From Candidatus Bathyarchaeia archaeon (lineage in GTDB: Archaea > Thermoproteota > Bathyarchaeia > 40CM-2-53-6), in contig JBEKFP010000002.1 of NCBI GenBank assembly GCA_050013255.1, forward strand, positions 160,001-224,000: a DNA stretch of 64,000 nucleotides, written 5' to 3'. Below are positions 16,420 through 28,799 of the stretch, one piece after another. How positions within the stretch are numbered: the stretch's first letter is position 1; the number at the start of each line of letters is the position of its first letter. Made by a program: the position numbers and the translations under genes. The notes below the pieces were generated by a model, which was not told the DNA's origin, ran no database searches, and saw nothing but the letters and a program-made list of their open reading frames with translations.

Positions 16420-18816
16420 ATGAAAATTGCCCGAAATCTAGTACTTTGCCTCATCTTAGCGTTAGTGATTCTTGCACCTGCATTGAGTCCTGCGGAGGCA
16501 GTAATTACTCCTCTGAGTACAGGTATTTTTCCTTCCGGGACAATTGTTGTCCCAATGGACGGAAAGCAAAATGACAGGATTCATGTTTACGGCCTAGTTC
16601 ACGAGTTTCTGAAGTCTACTCCAAACTCACAGATTGCCCGCGTTATTGAGCCCCCTGATGTCACGTTACAGACGCAATTAACTCCGAGCGGGGACGTCTA
16701 TCAGGGTGGGCCGTTCCTTATCGATTCTTCATACGCCGCGGCCATCAATACTTTGTTGGGCAACTCGACTTTCTCTAAAGTGACAGTTACGCGTCTCACC
16801 GCCTCCTTTACGTCGAACAGAATTTTCTTCGTAAGACAGCCAACTAAGATTCTCGTAATCGGTGATGGTTATTGGGGTGAAACATATCTCACACTTTTGA
16901 GGATGGGGATAAGCTTCGATCGGGTGACGACTGACCAAATATTGGCCAACCCATCATTGATCAACCAATACACACTAATCGTACTCGACAGCCCGGGTTG
17001 GTACGGAAATCCGTCAGCCTACGTGCCTGCTCGCCGAGCCCAGATCCAAGCTGTCTATAACACAATTCAAGCTCGCGTCCAGGCTGGAAACGAGGTAATG
17101 TTTACTGACGCTGCACTGTTGGATTTGAACTCGACTTTCCCAGGCTATATTAAATTGGGACAAGGTGGAGAAGCATCTACCCCAACTGTGACTGTCTATA
17201 ATCCATCAAGAGGAGGGTTCACTCCTGAGTTCCCAGGTCAGTACTATAATTCAGGGCCAACCCCGAACAAAGCGAAGATCTTGACCGAGGAGGGAGCGGG
17301 GCAATGGGTGCCCACCGCTGTTCCAGCGGCGCACGCTGGCGATGTTAGAGTAATTATGGATACAACTAACTACGGCTACCCAGCCCCACAGATCCCCTAC
17401 GCGATTCTCGCATTCTACTTCCCGTACGGTAACGGAATAGTCGAAGGCTTGGCATTCCAACCCTACCAGCAACTTTACCCGAACTATGCTGACCAGAACG
17501 GATACTATGCAACCTACGAAATTTACGGGAACAAATTCGTCGAGGGTCCACAATCCGACTTCTTCATCACAGCAACGCCTACGGCAGAAACGGTATCCCA
17601 AGGTCAAACCGCAAGTTACAGTTTGGCTGTGACTTCGGTGGGCAGTTTTAGTTCAGGCATTTCTCTTCAAGTGACTGCTGGCTTACCCCCGGGGGTACAA
17701 GCAAGCATCGTGCCCTCCTCTGTTACACCGAGTTCAGGAGGGACAGTAACTTCTACCCTTACGATTCCGACATCTTTGACTACGCCCACTGGGACGTATA
17801 ACCTCACGATTACAGGAACCTCAACTCTCCCACTCACCACTCGAAGCGTAGTCGTGACTCTTACTATTCAACCAGCGGCATCAGACTTTACGATCACAGC
17901 CAGCCCCCAAGCGCCAATCCCCCTCGTAGTTAACCAGGGCCAGTGTGGAAACATCACCATCACCGTTAGCTCAATTGGTAACTTCAGCTCACCCGTTGCC
18001 TTGACTCTCACGAACCTTCCCGCGCATGTTTCAGCAAGTTTCATACCCACCGCTGCCCCTACCCCACCACCGGGCGGCACAGCGGTCTCCGCTCTGAAAT
18101 TATGCCCAGACTCTTCCTTGACCCCTAACAACTACACGATGACGGTTGTCGGGACGAGCGGGTCACAGGTTCACACGGTCGACGTTATCATAGATGTTCC
18201 GCAACCATCGTTTAATTCCCTCATCTACCTGATCGTGCTAGCGCTTCTTCTCCTATCCATTGGTTTAGGCTTGCTCGCTTTTTACCTCTCGAGAAAAGGT
18301 CCAAGAAGGTTGCTTCGGCCGCGAGCGCGCTACGTTTTGCCTCTTCCGACCATTCGTTGCCGTTATTGTGGAAGGGTCATGCCTATGCAGGCCGTATACT
18401 GCCCCTTCTGCGGAAGAACCCAAGTGATCCTCGCGCGACGGCCTCCTAGAGTGGTCTCGGGTAGGCGCGGGAGGAGTGTTATCGGATTTGCACTTTGCCT
18501 TGTCTCCGGAATCCTCGTTCTCCTCAACAGCGCCGTCCTCCTAGTACCCTCATTCTACGGGCCTCCAGTAAACTGGTCGACAATCTTCTTCTGGTTACCG
18601 GCGATAGGACAAAGCTATGCCTTCGCGCTGGGCGTCATCATCGGCCTTACGCTCATCATGGGCTCGATAATCATGGTCATGGGACACGGAGCGATCGCGG
18701 ATGTCGTCATATTTCCGTTTGCAGTCTTTAGCATCATAATCGGTGGAGGTTTTGTCGCCGGTTTTGTGCTCGGAGTAGTTGGCGGGATCCTTGGGGCCTT
18801 GAGACGTAATTCATGA
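16420..18816 (+). CDS. Large cell-surface protein with Ig-like repeats, TM helix, zinc ribbon and a C-terminal multi-TM block
   Basis: Signal peptide; two 'SDF.ITA.P...SxGxFSS' Thr/Ser-rich repeats; CRYCG...CPFCG. Confidence 0.8.
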   Translation: MKIARNLVLCLILALVILAPALSPAEAVITPLSTGIFPSGTIVVPMDGKQNDRIHVYGLVHEFLKSTPNSQIARVIEPPDVTLQTQLTPSGDVYQGGPFLIDSSYAAAINTLLGNSTFSKVTVTRLTASFTSNRIFFVRQPTKILVIGDGYWGETYLTLLRMGISFDRVTTDQILANPSLINQYTLIVLDSPGWYGNPSAYVPARRAQIQAVYNTIQARVQAGNEVMFTDAALLDLNSTFPGYIKLGQGGEASTPTVTVYNPSRGGFTPEFPGQYYNSGPTPNKAKILTEEGAGQWVPTAVPAAHAGDVRVIMDTTNYGYPAPQIPYAILAFYFPYGNGIVEGLAFQPYQQLYPNYADQNGYYATYEIYGNKFVEGPQSDFFITATPTAETVSQGQTASYSLAVTSVGSFSSGISLQVTAGLPPGVQASIVPSSVTPSSGGTVTSTLTIPTSLTTPTGTYNLTITGTSTLPLTTRSVVVTLTIQPAASDFTITASPQAPIPLVVNQGQCGNITITVSSIGNFSSPVALTLTNLPAHVSASFIPTAAPTPPPGGTAVSALKLCPDSSLTPNNYTMTVVGTSGSQVHTVDVIIDVPQPSFNSLIYLIVLALLLLSIGLGLLAFYLSRKGPRRLLRPRARYVLPLPTIRCRYCGRVMPMQAVYCPFCGRTQVILARRPPRVVSGRRGRSVIGFALCLVSGILVLLNSAVLLVPSFYGPPVNWSTIFFWLPAIGQSYAFALGVIIGLTLIMGSIIMVMGHGAIADVVIFPFAVFSIIIGGGFVAGFVLGVVGGILGALRRNS

Positions 18817-21453: not shown

Positions 21454-21663
21454 ATGGGCGCTTTCTTCGACACCATGAAGAACCTCAAACATTCTGGGCC
21501 TGCGCCGAAGATCTGCCCAGAGTGTGGGAGCATGAAGGTGAAGCAGCAGGGCTCGTTGAATGGCTGGTTGATGCCGGCAGTCTATGCATGTGAGGAATGC
21601 GGTTATGTTGGCGGCATTGTTCTTGAGCTTGATGAAGAGAACGATGACCAAAAGAAAACATGA
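21454..21663 (+). CDS. Small zinc-ribbon protein
   Basis: CPECGS...YACEECGYVG. Confidence 0.75.
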   Translation: MGAFFDTMKNLKHSGPAPKICPECGSMKVKQQGSLNGWLMPAVYACEECGYVGGIVLELDEENDDQKKT

Positions 21664-21665
21664 GA

Positions 21666-21700
21666 CGTTAATGTTCCATTAACGGTACATTAATATACCG
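21666..21700 (+). promoter_or_regulatory. Putative promoter with inverted repeats upstream of the membrane protein/AAA-Lon pair
   Basis: CGTTAATG-ttc-CATTAACG (21666-21684). TATA-like TTAATATA (21690-21697) is bracketed by CGGTA/TACCG. Confidence 0.45.
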
Positions 21701-21730: not shown

Positions 21731-22633
21731 TTGGAGCGGCTGGACTCACTGGACTCAAGAAACGAACTTCACCTCATTCCGTGGGTCGCCGTAGTTCTTC
21801 TGGTTTCTCTCACATTCGGTGGGTTGCAAACCGCATCGGCCGATCAAATTCTCACGCGCACACTGAGCGTGCAGCTAAGCACAGGCGACTACTTGGTGGT
21901 TCAAAGTGATAGGGCAAGCATACAGCAGGTGTTCGTTCAGGGCAACTTCTCAGCGACCAACATGACACGACTCGCCCATTATCCTGCGGGCGACTACGAG
22001 ATTCAAGCATTCAATCCAGGCAGTTTCGAGTTGAGATTCATTTTCGATTACCCTAGTGAGTATCAGATCAACTTGCTCACTAGGTCCTCAAATTCAAGTT
22101 CGCCCGGGAATAGTACAACTTACTACTTGTCGGGCGGTTCGTTTGAGCTTGACGTAACTGCGATCTTCAACGCGCGGCCTAACACTCCCCCAATTGCCGT
22201 CCCATCCCTGTCGCCTTGGGACAGCTTTCTTCAGTGGATTGGAAAGTTTGGGGAGGCGTTTCCGTTATGGGTGAAGGGGCTCTATCTTGCGCTCGGCCTC
22301 CAATTCTTTGGTGTGGGTGGCTTATGGATCGCGCGTGAGTCCAAGAGGAAGGAAACAGCAGGGCAGCGACTTGACCTGGGCGATAAGGCATACCTCTGGT
22401 TAGGTGTCGTCTACAAGTTCCTGGTGGTCTCTTTTGCTGCAATCATTGCCATTATGGGCGGTGAACTTCTCTTACTGTTTGTACTTCGTTTCATGTTCCT
22501 TGCCTCTCTAGACCTTCTGTCTTTGTGGGATCTTTTTGTCGTTGGCTTTGCGGCAGGAGCGATCATAATGGTCTACCTAATTCGGTTTAGCCTTGAGAAG
22601 GTTTTCGACCTCAAACCTGTGGAAGGTGAGTAG
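21731..22633 (+). CDS. Membrane protein: N-terminal signal/anchor, extracellular beta-rich domain, ~3 C-terminal TM helices
   Basis: Hydropathy pattern; ends 2 nt before the AAA-Lon start. Confidence 0.75.
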   Translation: MERLDSLDSRNELHLIPWVAVVLLVSLTFGGLQTASADQILTRTLSVQLSTGDYLVVQSDRASIQQVFVQGNFSATNMTRLAHYPAGDYEIQAFNPGSFELRFIFDYPSEYQINLLTRSSNSSSPGNSTTYYLSGGSFELDVTAIFNARPNTPPIAVPSLSPWDSFLQWIGKFGEAFPLWVKGLYLALGLQFFGVGGLWIARESKRKETAGQRLDLGDKAYLWLGVVYKFLVVSFAAIIAIMGGELLLLFVLRFMFLASLDLLSLWDLFVVGFAAGAIIMVYLIRFSLEKVFDLKPVEGE

Positions 22634-22635
22634 TT

Positions 22636-25389
22636 ATGTCAAGTCAACTTGATGATTTGGAACGATATGTGCAGGCGCCTTCAGAACCTGAAGAGAACCT
22701 GGAGTGGTGGCGCAGGTTCAGAATATTGCGTTGGTTGAACTACGTACCGCTTCGTGCTGTCGATAAGGATTACGCGAAATGGCGGAAATCGCGAATATCG
22801 CCGAGGAAGTTCAGAAAAATACAGCAGCGCTTGGATAAGCTCTACCCGCCAGACAAATTCTCCTCAGTCAAACTCATCGGGCGCGAAAAAGAATACAACC
22901 TCCTGTTGGATTCTTTCAGGCTCCACGTCCTAAAGCACCCAATGCTTCGAAAATGGTTCGATAAAGACGAACTTCCGAAGGCCATCTGCCTAACCGGGGA
23001 AAGTGGAACCGGTAAGACTTTCCTCACGATGGTTTCTCTAAAGCAGATGCTACTTGAAGCCCACTCAAATGGCGTACTGCTCTCACCAATAATCATCAAA
23101 GGATCCGATGTCTTCTCAGAATACTACGGGCGGAGCACCAAGCAATTGAGTCGATTATTGGAGCGTGCTGCTTCAGCCCCTTCAGTGATCTACATAGATG
23201 AGTTCCAGAGTTTTGGAAAGAAGGTGAGAGGTGATTCTGGCACAGAACTGGAAGACACACGAGTTCAGGACGAGATAAACAGATGGCTCGATAAGATCCT
23301 AAGCAACGACGCACGCACCTTGGTAATTGTCGCTACAAATTCCTATGAACAAACGCGAGAAGACATTCGCCGCCGACTATCGCGGGTCGACCTTGACTCA
23401 GGAGTCACCCACGAGATGCTGCTGGCGATCATAAAGGACAGATTGTCAAGCGAAAGTTGGCGCGGAATTTCATCAGGTGAGATATTAGAGGTCTTGGAAA
23501 GAGAAGCGTCAATGCGCCGGCACGGTTCCATCACCCCAAATGATGTCCTAAGCGTTTTTAGAGAAGTGAAACGCGCGAAAGAGGTTCCACTGCTCGAGGC
23601 AATTCGAAGGTCTGTGCCTGGTCCGTTGTCCAAGTGGACCAAACCTAGGTACAGGGTAAGCCTCGAGGATTTTGCTCAGGCAGCGCACACGATGAAGTTC
23701 TATTCTGAGCGTGAAAAGTCGCAGGAAATTAGGGACGCGGTTTACATCGTCACCCCGAAGGATTCCAGAGAAGACATCGGCGGCCTTCATGACCTTAGGG
23801 ACAAAGTACTGAACCACATATCGCTCGCCTTCAACCGGAAAATGTCGGAGCTCGGATACGCCTCCAATTGTAGGTTCTTGCTGTTTGGGCCGCCAGGTAC
23901 CGGGAAGACGCTCCTCGCATTGGTTGCTGCAGCTGAGAATCGAGTTGCCTTCATCAAAGTCAGGGGAGGTGAACTGATGAGCGGTGCAAGTTACATAGGT
24001 GAACCCGAGAAACGGATTAAGGATCTATTTGCACTGGCCAGGCAGAGAACTCCGTGCATTCTTTTCCTCGACGAAGCCGACGCGATTTTCTGGGGAGCTG
24101 ACCCAACAGGTAACAAGATTCTTGCGCAAATAAAGGCCGAGTTGAGCGAGATTAAACCTGACGAAGGAATTGTGGTTATCGCCGCATCCAACAAGGAAAA
24201 TCTGATTGACCAAGCTACTAGGGATCGGTTCGAACCAAACGTATACTACGTACATCCACCGTTGAACGATGGTGAATGGAACGAGGTTGTGGAGATCCAC
24301 CTCAGAAAGTTCAGAAGGTTTCTACATCAGGAGATTGACCCGGCAAAAATCACACGGCTATTTAGAATGCAACGAATCTTGAGCCCGAGAGCTGCAGCCG
24401 AAACCATCTCCGAGGCACACAGGTTATGGGCTTCAGAATTGAGTGCGGTGGATGAGATTCGGACAGCTAAGGATGAGCAGGAGAAGCTCTTCGTCAAGAA
24501 GCGATACGAAGCGGACCTGAAACGGCTCCAATCCGTGATTGAAATGGAAGGCCACAAGTTATCGATGGAAAAAGTCGACGAGACTTGTTACCCAATCCGC
24601 CTGTACCACTTCGAAAGGGCAATTCAAGCGCTGGAGTCTAGCCAAGACAAACAGCGAAGAGAAATGGAAGAAGCCCTCATTCTGACCACGCCCACACCTG
24701 GAGCTTCATTCGGCCTCTACGCTGCTGATGATGGAACCGGTGGAATAATCACCGTAGAATGTTCAAGTAGACCGATAATCCCGGGAGAGAGACTCGTCTC
24801 CATAACAGGCAATTCCACTTCGATGATTGTAGGTCAGTCCGTCGTTCCGGACGAATCGGTTCTACAGAGCGCGCAAAACGCCGTAGAAGCGGTTAGGTCC
24901 TGGCTTTGGACGGCGTGCAACATGGACCTCAGCCGTTTGCATGTGCATTTCCAAGTTAGAAGCCTATTAGAAGGTGCCCCGGGGCAGGGAGTATCAGGGC
25001 CGAGTGCCGGTTTGGCGATGGTCCTAGCACTTTTCTCGGAACTTTCAGGCGTTCCGATTTCGCCTTCAATTGTTGCTACAGGAACAATCGGAGTTAAGCA
25101 TGACGTTGGCCCCGTAGGCGGACTAGGAGGGTACGGAACTCAGACTGGGAAGATTGTTGGAATCCTGAAGTCGAGACGTATACGTGTCACAGATTTGGTG
25201 TTGCCCATTGCAAACTTCGAAGCGGCGAGAGATGAAATGAGGATTCTGCAAGAAGAGGGGGTTTGCGTTCATCCTATACGTAACGTAGCAGAATGCTTGG
25301 AAGTTGTGTTCGGTGTTAGCGAACAGGGATTGATTGGAGAGATAAAAGAAAGGTACGAGACAGCTGCGATGCTAACTCAGCGGGCTTAG
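22636..25389 (+). CDS. Tandem AAA-AAA ATPase fused to a Lon (S16) protease domain
   Basis: D1 GESGTGKT/IYIDE; D2 GPPGTGKT/LFLDEAD; Lon motifs SGPSAG, ATGTI, PVGG...K. Confidence 0.85.
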   Translation: MSSQLDDLERYVQAPSEPEENLEWWRRFRILRWLNYVPLRAVDKDYAKWRKSRISPRKFRKIQQRLDKLYPPDKFSSVKLIGREKEYNLLLDSFRLHVLKHPMLRKWFDKDELPKAICLTGESGTGKTFLTMVSLKQMLLEAHSNGVLLSPIIIKGSDVFSEYYGRSTKQLSRLLERAASAPSVIYIDEFQSFGKKVRGDSGTELEDTRVQDEINRWLDKILSNDARTLVIVATNSYEQTREDIRRRLSRVDLDSGVTHEMLLAIIKDRLSSESWRGISSGEILEVLEREASMRRHGSITPNDVLSVFREVKRAKEVPLLEAIRRSVPGPLSKWTKPRYRVSLEDFAQAAHTMKFYSEREKSQEIRDAVYIVTPKDSREDIGGLHDLRDKVLNHISLAFNRKMSELGYASNCRFLLFGPPGTGKTLLALVAAAENRVAFIKVRGGELMSGASYIGEPEKRIKDLFALARQRTPCILFLDEADAIFWGADPTGNKILAQIKAELSEIKPDEGIVVIAASNKENLIDQATRDRFEPNVYYVHPPLNDGEWNEVVEIHLRKFRRFLHQEIDPAKITRLFRMQRILSPRAAAETISEAHRLWASELSAVDEIRTAKDEQEKLFVKKRYEADLKRLQSVIEMEGHKLSMEKVDETCYPIRLYHFERAIQALESSQDKQRREMEEALILTTPTPGASFGLYAADDGTGGIITVECSSRPIIPGERLVSITGNSTSMIVGQSVVPDESVLQSAQNAVEAVRSWLWTACNMDLSRLHVHFQVRSLLEGAPGQGVSGPSAGLAMVLALFSELSGVPISPSIVATGTIGVKHDVGPVGGLGGYGTQTGKIVGILKSRRIRVTDLVLPIANFEAARDEMRILQEEGVCVHPIRNVAECLEVVFGVSEQGLIGEIKERYETAAMLTQRA

Positions 25390-26318
25390 ATATCCAGTTT
25401 CAGTGATTCTTTGAGGCCCTTGTACCTGTTCCGGACAGTAACTTCAGTAACGTTAGCTACCTCAGCTATCTCCTTCTGGGTCTTCTTTTCCCCTTCTAGG
25501 ACGCACGCTACGTAGAGTGACGCTGCCGCAAGCCCCATGGGGTCTTTTCCGGCAACAATTCCCTTCATCTTTGCCTCGTTGATTATCTTAATCGCACGTT
25601 GCTGTGTGGGCATTGAAATTTCGACTTTCGTGGCAATCTTCGAAATGCATTTAACCGGATCTTCGACTGGCATTCGGAGGTCTAATTCGCGGACGAGTAG
25701 TCTATAACACCTTGCAACATCTTTCTTTCGAATCCTACTCGCAGCGGACACGTCTTTCAGTGTTCTCGGGGTTTCGGAAATCCTACAAGCTGCATAGAGT
25801 GATGCTGCGGCAATTGCAGCTATCGAACGACCTCTGACAAGTCCGTTGTCGAGGGCTTTTCTGTAGACTATGGCAGCTCGTTCCTTTATGGAGGCTGGTA
25901 TGTGCAACATGTCTGTTAGGCGGTCAAGTTCGGCCATTGCTTGAGCAAGATTCCTATCGGCCGAGGAGTGTACACGTGTTCTGATTTGCCACTTCCTTAG
26001 GCGAAGCATTTCAAGCCTGGTTGCTAGCGGAAGTTGACGACCGTACGCGTCTCGGTTGACGCGGTCGATGACCGTTGAAAGGCCCTTATCATGAATAGAG
26101 AATGACGTTGGGATACCCACGCGCCCGCGTTCATCCTTCTCTTCCTTCGTGAAGGCACGCCATTCGGGCCCTTGGTTCAGGGAATGTTCGCTGATAACCA
26201 AACCGCAATTCTGGCAGATTATCTCGCCTTGATCATAGTCCTCTACTAAGTTCGTGCTCCCACATTCGGGGCAGTTGGTTAGTTTTCCAACTTTCTTCGT
26301 TGTCGTGCTCGCACTCAA
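25386..26318 (-). CDS. tfb: Transcription initiation factor IIB
   Basis: CPECGS...CQNCG, GPEWRAF, HDKGLST, VRGRS, GKDPMGLAAA, VTEVTVRNRY. Confidence 0.98.
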   Translation of the reverse strand: MSASTTTKKVGKLTNCPECGSTNLVEDYDQGEIICQNCGLVISEHSLNQGPEWRAFTKEEKDERGRVGIPTSFSIHDKGLSTVIDRVNRDAYGRQLPLATRLEMLRLRKWQIRTRVHSSADRNLAQAMAELDRLTDMLHIPASIKERAAIVYRKALDNGLVRGRSIAAIAAASLYAACRISETPRTLKDVSAASRIRKKDVARCYRLLVRELDLRMPVEDPVKCISKIATKVEISMPTQQRAIKIINEAKMKGIVAGKDPMGLAAASLYVACVLEGEKKTQKEIAEVANVTEVTVRNRYKGLKESLKLDI

Positions 26319-26863: not shown

Positions 26864-27529
26864 TCAACCGGCAATAGGCTCGTCTCCAGATCTGCCGCGT
26901 TTGGAAAGAACATCTAACCAGGGGTTATTCGAAAAGAAAGCCGGAAGTTGTGACCCAGAAATACTGGGGCTGGGAAATATAGGTTCGTGTCGAGCAATCC
27001 GAGAAAGCGTGGGTTCTCTTGTATCTGTTTGCGTCTCGGAATTGCGCCTTAAGGTTTTCAGGTCGTCGCGAAGTGTGGCTATGGTTCTCTCCATTTCCGT
27101 GTACATTGATTTCAAGCTGGCCAGTTCAGTGAATAGACCTGGGTCGGGAGTCTGAGATGTTTGTGCCATCAGCTTTGTGGGTTGCACTAGTTGCGGAGCA
27201 ACGACTTCGTCGATCCTGCGTTCGTCGAAAAGGAGCAAGCCTATTCCATAAGGCTTGAAGACTGCGGCGTCAATGGAAGCTCCCAGTAATCGTGGTGCGG
27301 CCAAATAGAGGAATTGAGATGAATTCCGAAGGGACGTCAGGCTGAGTATGGCCTCAATAACCCTGTTTCTCTCAACGAAATCCTCGCTCCTCAAAATGAC
27401 GACATGAACTTTCTCGGAACCTGAAATGAATGCGAGGTTATTTTGCGGTATTTCGGACTTTTCGGTCTGATGCATGCCCATTGCTAGAAAGTAGTGAAGC
27501 AACCTGTCCTCGATAGGTAAGTCAGCCAC
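26864..27529 (-). CDS. Arcadin-2-like crenactin partner
   Basis: Overlaps the crenactin stop; alpha/beta N-domain, coiled coil, and C-terminal amphipathic NNPWLDVLSKRG. Confidence 0.65.
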   Translation of the reverse strand: MADLPIEDRLLHYFLAMGMHQTEKSEIPQNNLAFISGSEKVHVVILRSEDFVERNRVIEAILSLTSLRNSSQFLYLAAPRLLGASIDAAVFKPYGIGLLLFDERRIDEVVAPQLVQPTKLMAQTSQTPDPGLFTELASLKSMYTEMERTIATLRDDLKTLRRNSETQTDTREPTLSRIARHEPIFPSPSISGSQLPAFFSNNPWLDVLSKRGRSGDEPIAG

Positions 27530-28799
27530 TGAGCTTCATCCACCCCTCGAGGCGTTGCCAATCCCACCCGTAGTTATCAGGGACAGCGAAGCCATAGATT
27601 ATGCAGCCATGCCAGACCGAAAATTGAGGTGATTTTGTCATCTTGACGGAGACATTCTTGATTCCCTTCTGTCGAAGTAGCAACTTGATTTTTGTGGGGG
27701 CGTCGACCGCAGTATCTTCGAGGCGTTCAGGAACGATCCAGCTGAAGTTCCCGCCAGACAACAACACCTCACGGTAGAGCATCGGTTGGAGTTCAACTGG
27801 GCAGCGCTCTACTGAGGCAACAATGGCATCGCCGAAGTCTAGCATCCCGCGGAATATGGTATCGCCCATCTTAACGTCCCTAGGTCTCGGCATGCCGCGC
27901 CCGAAGTAGCTCTCGAAAATTTCGTGGTTCGGGTTAAACACGTATTCGCCAATCAGGAACCTACTCCACGAGTCTTTTTCTAAGTCAATCTCGACCCTGG
28001 TTCCTGGTACTTTGTACTTGGCCCTGAATTTTCGTGGCGACCTCTTCGCTTCATCTACGGCAGCGTCGAGGTCTGCCGGTACAAGCCCTATGTTTTCCTT
28101 GACTTTACGAACAAAAGCCTCTTCGTTGGCAAGGTCTCCGTATCCCGCGTCTTTCAATATCTCAGACGTAATTGCGTTTGCGTCGCCACCGCCTCGGTTG
28201 AGAACAACTTGCGCTGCGCGGATGGGGTACTTAGAGATAGGGCAGACTTGACTATTGCCATGCCCGGATTCGATCACGACGCAAGTTGTCACACCATGAC
28301 CGATTGCGACGGCGAACGGCTGAGGTATGACTGTTATCGCCTTGACATTTCCATTAGCGTTGTTTTGTCCGAAGAGTTCTAGGAGCCGTTCGTACATGTA
28401 GCGTGGTGATACTGACGAGAGTGACGCTACGACGTAGTATCCTTGGAAGCCATTGTTTGGTTCGGGTTTGAAGCTATTCAACCCGAAGTTAGTTAGGGCG
28501 CTTACCACTCGCCATGCAGTGTCATCGGCCCTGTCGATCATGCCGTTACGCATGGGATAAACTAAGCGACTTGATAGGTCATCGGCTGACTGTAGGTAGA
28601 GTGGAACGTCTTCTCCCACAATGATTTCATCTGTCGATTCAAAAGCCTTGTACACAACAGAGTTCTTGTCGGGAAAGTAACCTCGGTTGTTGACGATTCT
28701 CGGCGTCTCGCCGCATGTTATTGGACCAAACTTGAAGTCGCTTGTCCCGAAGTCCATAGCGAAAGTGTAGTGGCTTCGATAGTCGGTTTCTGCGGTCAT
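27522..28799 (-). CDS. Crenactin (archaeal actin)
   Basis: YTFAMDFGTS, PQPFAVAI, ESGHGN.QV.PI, LNRGG..ANAIT.EILKD.GY, RFLIGE.VF.PNHE, LSGG.FSW, SVW.G.IIYG, EGW; these match crenactin as I recall it. Confidence 0.92.
   Translation of the reverse strand: MTAETDYRSHYTFAMDFGTSDFKFGPITCGETPRIVNNRGYFPDKNSVVYKAFESTDEIIVGEDVPLYLQSADDLSSRLVYPMRNGMIDRADDTAWRVVSALTNFGLNSFKPEPNNGFQGYYVVASLSSVSPRYMYERLLELFGQNNANGNVKAITVIPQPFAVAIGHGVTTCVVIESGHGNSQVCPISKYPIRAAQVVLNRGGGDANAITSEILKDAGYGDLANEEAFVRKVKENIGLVPADLDAAVDEAKRSPRKFRAKYKVPGTRVEIDLEKDSWSRFLIGEYVFNPNHEIFESYFGRGMPRPRDVKMGDTIFRGMLDFGDAIVASVERCPVELQPMLYREVLLSGGNFSWIVPERLEDTAVDAPTKIKLLLRQKGIKNVSVKMTKSPQFSVWHGCIIYGFAVPDNYGWDWQRLEGWMKLSG

Follow-up and report, generated by a model that had tools for sequence, protein, structure and literature searches.

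Two adjacent genes of a Bathyarchaeia archaeon encode a double-AAA protein with a Lon peptidase domain and a small membrane partner: a candidate membrane-tethered ATP-dependent protease

In a stretch of 64,000 nucleotides (nt) from a Candidatus Bathyarchaeia archaeon (contig JBEKFP010000002.1, positions 160,001 to 224,000; the whole stretch is called the window here) we analyzed two neighboring genes which together may encode a protease held at the membrane. The genome around the locus belongs to the Bathyarchaeia and comprises 2.46 Mb on three contigs. The downstream open reading frame (ORF) encodes a protein of 917 amino acids (aa) with two AAA modules and a C-terminal Lon domain, whereas the upstream ORF encodes a small membrane protein, referred to as the partner. 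As stated in a preliminary description of this DNA, the upstream gene ends 2 nt before the start codon of the protease gene: its stop codon TAG (22631-22633) is followed by TT and then by the ATG. This short spacer and the layout of a GGTGA sequence and a TATA-like box (Table 1) suggest that the two ORFs form a single operon with coupled translation.

Table 1. Features of the two-gene locus (positions in the window)
Feature	Position	Strand	Basis
TATA-like box TTAATATA, 34 nt ahead of the partner TTG; candidate archaeal promoter of the two-gene operon	21690..21697	+	direct sequence reading, inference
Partner gene, 300 aa, TTG start	21731..22633	+	ORF
Conserved core of the partner: module of three transmembrane (TM) helices and acidic C-terminal tail, aa 179-300	22265..22630	+	profile comparison
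GGTGA, Shine-Dalgarno-like, within the 3' end of the partner gene, 6 nt ahead of the protease ATG	22625..22629	+	inference
Double-AAA Lon-type protease gene, 917 aa, ATG start	22636..25389	+	ORF
Basic, helical N-terminus (aa 19-75) with motif WWxRxxxLRxxxxxPLxxxxxxYxxWRxxxxxPxK; may serve docking or lie close to the membrane	22690..22860	+	conservation in partner-linked members
D1, classical AAA, aa ~84-340: Walker A GESGTGKT (K127), Walker B DE (188-189), pore loop YYG (163-165), RRR (245-247)	22885..23655	+	Pfam, alignment
D2, classical AAA, aa ~375-640: Walker A GPPGTGKT (K424), Walker B DE (479-480), pore loop YIG (452-454), sensor-1 N519, R531	23758..24555	+	Pfam, alignment
Lon S16 peptidase domain, aa 684-895; Ser790 codon 25003-25005, Lys839 codon 25150-25152	24685..25320	+	Pfam, alignment with Archaeoglobus fulgidus LonB

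The preliminary description expected a profile scan of the 917-aa protein to return two AAA domains and a Lon_C domain. Accordingly, Pfam matched AAA (PF00004) in two stretches (E = 3.9e-49) and Lon_C (PF05362) at residues 684-891 (E = 5.7e-11; 42.8 bits against a cut-off of 21.1). The intact Walker A and B motifs, pore loops and Arg-finger-like segments reported for both AAA modules were all recovered, with SEYYG at residues 161-165, SYIGE at 451-455, IRRRL at 244-248 and TRDRF at 527-531. Over D1 and D2 the protein is colinear with the NCBIfam CDC48 model TIGR01243 (protein 99-560 to profile 198-639) at a score of 160 bits, the cut-off being 803. The best solved relatives of the ATPase part were VAT, p97, Cdc48 and Rix7, with VAT at the top (5g4g, E = 4.6e-49, two stretches). 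A similar picture came from the AlphaFold2 model of the protease (mean predicted local distance difference test score, pLDDT, of 81.6): in Foldseek the predicted fold matched p97, Cdc48 and Rix7 over about 630 columns (E ~1e-27). Residues 1-75 are strongly basic and matched no known domain; four short helices were predicted here, those within residues 24-69 at a pLDDT of 63-74. The linker between D2 and the Lon domain carries an invariant H658 motif (YxxxLxHFE). No hydrophobic TM segment was found in the protein, in line with the earlier reading.

The Lon domain was described beforehand as having its catalytic Ser in GPSAG and, owing to an insertion, a Lys at +49. We located Ser790 in this motif and Lys839 at +49, and the residue ahead of the Ser is Pro, as in A-type sites. 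When aligned with the protease domain of A. fulgidus LonB (1z0b, E = 2.4e-8), Ser790 and Lys839 fell on the catalytic Ser and Lys, and the query contained six extra residues within PVGGLGGYGTQTGK, ahead of Lys839, so that this claim was confirmed as well. Proteolytic domains (P-domains) of LonB and LonA in the PDB matched the Lon part with E values of 2e-8 to 1e-5. The closest solved Lon domain, that of A. fulgidus LonB, is B-type, although the site of the query is A-type.

More than 120 near-full-length relatives with 60-97% identity were found in metagenomes, and an exhaustive profile-free search added about 25 clusters in which the whole architecture recurs at 25-37% identity. Conservation was evaluated in 48 aligned family members with identity as low as 25%. 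K127, D188, K424, D479, E480, N519, R531 and S790 were invariant in all 48, E189 was present in 45 and K839 in 47 of them, the remaining one having Arg instead of Lys. Thus, E189 and K839 as well as R245-R247 and Pro789 were conserved at ≥94%. Both pore loops kept the aromatic-hydrophobic-Gly pattern, and the offset from Ser to Lys varied between 44 and 55, with most members at 47-49. Since these residues are invariant or nearly invariant, the set of motifs is not a product of chance. Moreover, to judge from the conservation of the Walker motifs, the pore loops, the Ser and the Lys, both rings seem to be functional ATPases with loops that grip substrate, and the peptidase seems to be catalytic. 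Where public records give the proteins a name, it is 'AAA family ATPase', 'SpoVK/Ycf46/Vps4 family AAA+-type ATPase' or 'transitional endoplasmic reticulum ATPase', and the protease domain is unmentioned. A version from marine Nitrososphaerales (L031; P0284/P0137) with 1120 aa, present on 19 contigs including Tara samples, has an extra C-terminal domain after Lon at residues ~960-1120, the peptidase-like 'BSP' domain PF04450 (E = 9e-16), which is possibly a second protease.

The upstream protein was initially described as an extracellular domain with about three TM helices, and this topology was found again in our analysis. An N-terminal signal peptide or anchor (aa 11-34, TASA/DQ) is followed by an ectodomain predicted to form a nine-strand beta-sandwich (aa 41-147, pLDDT 80-90) with four NxS/T sequons, by a juxtamembrane helix, by three long TM helices (aa 179-292) and by the tail LEKVFDLKPVEGE; the pLDDT of the AlphaFold2 model was 76. 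Conservation peaks in the TM part and the tail, for which we noted the conserved sequence LEKxFDLKPxExE, and the ectodomain diverges fast. Because the N-terminus is predicted to lie outside and three TM helices follow, the tail and the basic TM1-TM2 loop would face the cytoplasm. The partner had no family match in Pfam, NCBIfam or PADLOC, and a Foldseek comparison of its model with the PDB gave nothing at E ≤ 0.001. A wide search with VIA-align returned generic helical-bundle matches alone (Z ≤ 8.8); these concern the TM part, since helices fill the list and the ectodomain is barely covered.

The preliminary description regarded this protein as a dedicated partner and named a lack of joint conservation of the two genes as an argument against it. 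In all 14 related loci that were fetched, a partner orthologue with 33-90% identity was located directly upstream. A wider set was built from one genome per species with two peptide patterns from the Lon region as the sole criterion, which yielded 79 loci with 67 full-length genes. Next to 63 of these 67 genes we found an adjacent or overlapping co-directional membrane-protein ORF upstream. Three others, all from metagenome-assembled genomes (MAGs) of Asgard archaea (Odin-, Prometh- and Hodarchaeota), had no such ORF and encode proteins of ~1010 aa with an N-terminal extension of three TM helices. One gene was without upstream DNA, and none of the 67 was without a partner. Hence, across phylum-level distances, every one of the 66 informative loci has a protease that is either fused to the partner or encoded beside it. 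In the Asgard fusions the partner tail (...Y[ED]xxDE[EQ]) runs via about six residues into the protease motif PWWxRH. The pair thus stays together, and its conservation and the fusions support the view of the upstream membrane protein as a dedicated partner. On the classic argument from gene neighborhood and gene fusion we propose that the two proteins form a physical complex. A complex prediction with protease residues 1-345 and partner residues 165-300 scored 0.10, the mark being 0.32, and was counted neither way on binding.

The N-terminal motif of the protease was kept in every partner-linked member. It was missing in six distant representatives, and the three of them whose loci were inspected have no upstream partner. 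At two loci with a protease that lacks both the N-terminal motif and an upstream partner, a membrane protein of 204 or 230 aa is encoded directly downstream (L035 6355-6969 and L036 7088-7780), which may represent an alternative arrangement. Single MAGs can contain paralogous pairs, each with its own partner type (L057 and L091, L056 and L088, L049 and L093). At one metagenomic locus a gene for a 195-aa protein with an HNH motif is located between the partner and protease genes (L034 3417-4004) and looks like a mobile insertion. Clear orthologous pairs were also seen on contigs under the bacterial bin names Acidiferrales/Acidoferrales, Methylomirabilota, Dormibacteraeota and Terriglobales (L047, L049, L093, P0047, P0053, P0054 and P0069); these are probably binning errors in MAG sets from soil.

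Three forms of the partner were distinguished. Type I is the form found at the locus in the window. Type II consists of an ectodomain, three TM helices and a tail with WY[DE]xxDEE, and it also occurs as a version of 116-127 aa without the ectodomain. Type III has an ectodomain and two TM helices and is devoid of the tail. In most clades the partner has a beta-sandwich outside the membrane that is predicted to be well folded and is rich in sequons. The ectodomain is absent from the partners of 116-127 aa, which belong to a paralogous clade, and from all three Asgard fusions. In hhalign comparisons the stand-alone proteins with three TM helices (125 aa) matched the C-terminus of type II with a probability of 99.8% and the Asgard N-terminal extension with 99.0%, and the latter two matched each other with 99.1%. 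The C-terminal modules of type I and type II reached 65% (E = 5.8e-5). Type I against the stand-alone partners without L105 gave E = 1e-3 in hhalign and E = 3e-5 in hmmsearch; a value of 99.3% for this comparison was not used, as the set contained L105, which is probably a truncated type I orthologue. A tail motif of the form aromatic-[DE]-x-x-[DP]-x-E is common to the partner forms with a tail and the Asgard fusions.

Members of the family were found in Bathyarchaeia, Methanomethylicia, Nezhaarchaeota, Nitrososphaerota, MAGs of Sulfolobales and Desulfurococcaceae, Hecatellales and Marsarchaeota, in addition to the Asgard groups mentioned above. Of 101 genomes sampled evenly across the phylum, 21 had the family, corresponding to 10 of 57 genera, with one match per positive genome. 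The genome studied here has two true Cdc48 genes, each scoring >1000 bits, and one other Lon protein, which is soluble and LonC-like (796 aa; G000:C3:3007-4347, locus L037 1369-3759, minus strand). The latter has AAA_32, LonC_helical, LonB_AAA-LID and Lon_C domains, a B-type EGDSAS site, a Walker A motif and no TM segment. A LonB with TM helices was not found in this genome, and the LonB equivalog TIGR00764 was above its cut-off in none of the 101 sampled genomes. The idea that the family replaces LonB was dropped, because TIGR00764 was found in 0 and the family in only 21 of the 101 genomes, which is no simple complementary pattern.

The neighborhood of the pair consists of housekeeping genes, namely those for SUI1, a DRG-type GTPase, an RDD protein, TFB and an actin-family protein. 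The TFB (TFIIB) gene (25386-26318, minus strand) is convergent with the protease gene and overlaps its final 4 nt, and the gene of the 425-aa crenactin-like actin-family protein lies nearby (27522-28799, minus strand). Between SUI1 and the partner gene there is a 69-aa zinc-ribbon ORF with CPxC...CxxC and an acidic tail (21454-21663, plus strand). By tblastn (33-90% identity) it lies beside the pair at no fewer than 15 related loci of Bathyarchaeia, in some of them on the opposite strand, and the other clades gave no match; local synteny or a role as a clade-specific accessory could explain this. An ORF of 798 aa (16420-18816, plus strand) had no Pfam family at E ≤ 0.001.

Taken together, we favor the explanation that the two genes constitute an operon for a membrane-tethered ATP-dependent protease, to which we assign a probability of roughly 0.6. 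The odds are about even that it represents a distinct, so far undescribed class of archaeal energy-dependent proteases, in which a Cdc48-like double-ring unfoldase is joined to a Lon chamber and docked by a dedicated subunit with three TM helices that is fused to it in Asgard archaea. We infer that the 917-aa subunit most likely assembles into a hexamer of three stacked rings, i.e. D1, D2 and a chamber with Lon-type Ser-Lys sites. The basic helical motif at its N-terminus would hold the protease at the cytoplasmic face of the membrane via the partner, which might offer its TM bundle, cytoplasmic loop and acidic tail as docking surfaces. Given that the fusions attach the TM module to the N-terminus, D1 would lie closest to the membrane, followed by D2 and then, farthest away, the Lon chamber. 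Damaged or unassembled membrane proteins are the likely substrates, and cytosolic proteins may be degraded too. The aromatic pore loops of both rings, D1 and D2, would grip such a substrate and, driven by ATP hydrolysis, extract or unfold it and thread it processively into the Lon chamber, where it would be cleaved.

Several observations weigh against this explanation. The spacing of the putative catalytic residues is unusual, with 48 residues between Ser and Lys compared to 42 in LonA and LonB. The distribution is wide but patchy (21 of 101 phylum genomes), with none in single-contig genomes among those listed individually, and hence the pair is not an essential universal system. Every member found comes from a MAG. 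Furthermore, the partner type of the window appears only weakly similar to the type II module, which is the one that matches the fused module. Finally, some distant clades (P0141, P0148 and P0189) have a different N-terminus and no upstream partner, and therefore the protease can exist without the anchor.

The preliminary description considered that an external signal might trigger the protease. As a core feature this was not borne out, since the TM module and the tail are conserved and the ectodomain is missing from the 116-127-aa partners and the Asgard fusions. As whole clades do without the ectodomain, anchoring rather than external sensing appears to be the core role of the partner, and the ectodomain would not be essential to the core mechanism. 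In the clade of the window it would be an optional accessory that might aid substrate selection or regulation from the outer face, so that an external trigger is at most a clade-specific add-on. A stronger form of the idea is a signal-gated regulatory protease, in which a cue from outside or from the envelope would be sensed by the ectodomain and would direct the activated protease to a specific regulator, akin to the regulated proteolysis of anti-sigma factors. The sequon-rich sandwich of most clades would suit this, and so would its fast divergence next to a conserved TM part, as expected for a part that faces a ligand or substrate. However, the protease is fully conserved where the ectodomain is absent, no regulator gene was conserved beside the pair in the loci inspected, and the ectodomain had no informative match in a fold search that barely covered it. 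We regard signal gating as unlikely. Also quite improbable is an extractase or segregase for membrane proteins, in which the double AAA motor would do most of the work, as in Cdc48 or Msp1, and the Lon domain would serve only self-processing or assembly or degrade little. Such a function would agree with the full set of ATPase and pore-loop motifs in both rings and with the departure from the Ser-Lys spacing that is fixed in LonA and LonB (PMC9569914). Nevertheless, the conservation of Ser790, Pro789, Lys839 and the Gly-rich motifs around them extends to members with 25% identity, a single one of 48 having Arg in place of Lys, which argues for selection on catalysis.

A soluble protease whose neighboring membrane protein is a substrate or unrelated seems very improbable to us. 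The missing TM segment in the 917-aa protein and the distant clades without a partner fit this view, but the two are linked or fused in every informative locus, and a stable end-to-end fusion is hard to square with a substrate role. An anti-phage defence module of an AAA ATPase and a protease, as in IetAS or BrxL-containing systems, is barely credible. PADLOC IetA models matched D2 (E = 7.9e-33), and NCBIfam IteA gave a match at E = 7e-31. Yet these matches are limited to the generic core of classical AAA proteins and fall short of the match to VAT, and no PADLOC model hit the Lon domain or the partner. Besides, the surroundings are a housekeeping neighborhood and not a defence island, and all 21 positive genomes of the phylum sample have one match each. 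We rejected the defence reading, as its support consists of generic AAA matches only.

ATP-dependent proteases in textbooks comprise Lon, FtsH, Clp, HslUV and the proteasome with its ATPases. To our knowledge, LonB is the only ATP-dependent protease known at the archaeal membrane. The list would gain an entry with a widely distributed machine in which a Cdc48-type double motor, a Lon chamber and a dedicated membrane subunit are combined. If the family does represent a distinct class of this kind, a single chain would act as an 'extract-and-degrade' machine at the archaeal membrane, comparable to FtsH in bacteria and to Cdc48 plus proteasome in the endoplasmic reticulum-associated degradation of eukaryotes. 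With one 917-aa chain and a small partner, it would be a compact model for extraction coupled to degradation of membrane proteins. The occurrence in Asgard and TACK archaea would then be relevant for the pre-eukaryotic history of Cdc48-driven membrane protein extraction. Moreover, it would provide a handle on proteostasis in Asgard archaea and in uncultured archaea of soil and sediment.

The preliminary description placed the architecture outside LonA, LonB and CDC48/VAT, and membership tests agree: by its defining features, the predicted protease is not a LonA, LonB, LonC, LonBA, Cdc48 or FtsH. A Lon classification from 2022 lists only the subfamilies A, B, C and BA, each with one AAA+ module (PMC9569914). 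The AAA-AAA-Lon arrangement is not among the domain architectures in a census of Lon proteins from 2008, and we found no description of it in the full-text literature, subscription journals not covered; a characterized family, which would have spoken against novelty, did not emerge within this scope. The family is distinct in that it combines an AAA-AAA-Lon_C chain of ~900-930 aa, an N-terminal WWxR...YRxW motif and an adjacent or fused membrane module with three (or two) TM helices, all of which are present in the pair of the window. It resembles MEROPS family S16 in a Lon_C domain that is recognizable by profile and in the conserved Ser-Lys dyad (Ser in 48, Lys in 47 of 48 members). In LonA and LonB, however, Ser and Lys are fixed 42 residues apart (PMC9569914), whereas 48 residues separate them in the protease of the window. 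Also unlike the Lon family, it has two classical AAA modules of PF00004 and no match to AAA_32, LonB_AAA-LID or a Lon lid in Pfam. The best-scoring Lon model of NCBIfam was spore_lonB (50 bits, cut-off 723).

In contrast to LonA, no N-terminal LON substrate-binding domain was matched in Pfam, and TIGR00763 scored 37 bits with a cut-off of 608. Archaeal LonB (MEROPS S16.005) shares the Lon S16 peptidase domain, its A. fulgidus P-domain being the closest solved structure. It is a membrane-associated ATP-dependent protease of archaea, to which the predicted protease of the window may be likened. LonB has a single AAA+ module of another clade, TM helices inserted within it and Asp ahead of the catalytic Ser (PMC9569914). 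The protease described here has no TM segment, Pro before the Ser and two classical AAA modules, and TIGR00764 gave 33 bits against a cut-off of 517. LonBA of Bacillus subtilis, a proposed subfamily (PMC9569914), resembles the protease of the window in its A-type Pro-Ser site and in that the chain is presumably attached to the membrane by its N-terminus and not from within the AAA module. It differs in its single AAA+ module of the Lon type, in an anchor that is part of the chain and in being confined to Firmicutes.

With Cdc48, VAT and p97 the protease shares the tandem of classical AAA modules D1 and D2, colinear in sequence and predicted fold, and with archaeal VAT the aromatic pore loops in both rings. 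Unlike Cdc48 and VAT, it had no Pfam match to CDC48_N or CDC48_2 and carries a short basic helical N-terminus instead, and its TIGR01243 score is far below the cut-off. In comparison with Cdc48 and the 20S proteasome, the protease is fused as a C-terminal Lon domain and is not a separate 20S particle. FtsH and the m-AAA and i-AAA proteases likewise combine a classical-clade AAA motor with a C-terminal protease chamber in one chain. FtsH differs in having one AAA ring, an M41 zinc metalloprotease and in-chain TM helices, whereas the protease of the window has two AAA rings, a Ser-Lys Lon peptidase and an anchor that is a separate subunit except in the Asgard fusions. Peptidase_M41 was not matched in Pfam, and TIGR01241 scored 105 bits with a cut-off of 600. 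Nevertheless, FtsH is anchored through a TM element at its N-terminus, which bears an extracytoplasmic domain, and it pulls membrane proteins out of the bilayer for degradation; by analogy, the same layout is proposed for the pair described here.

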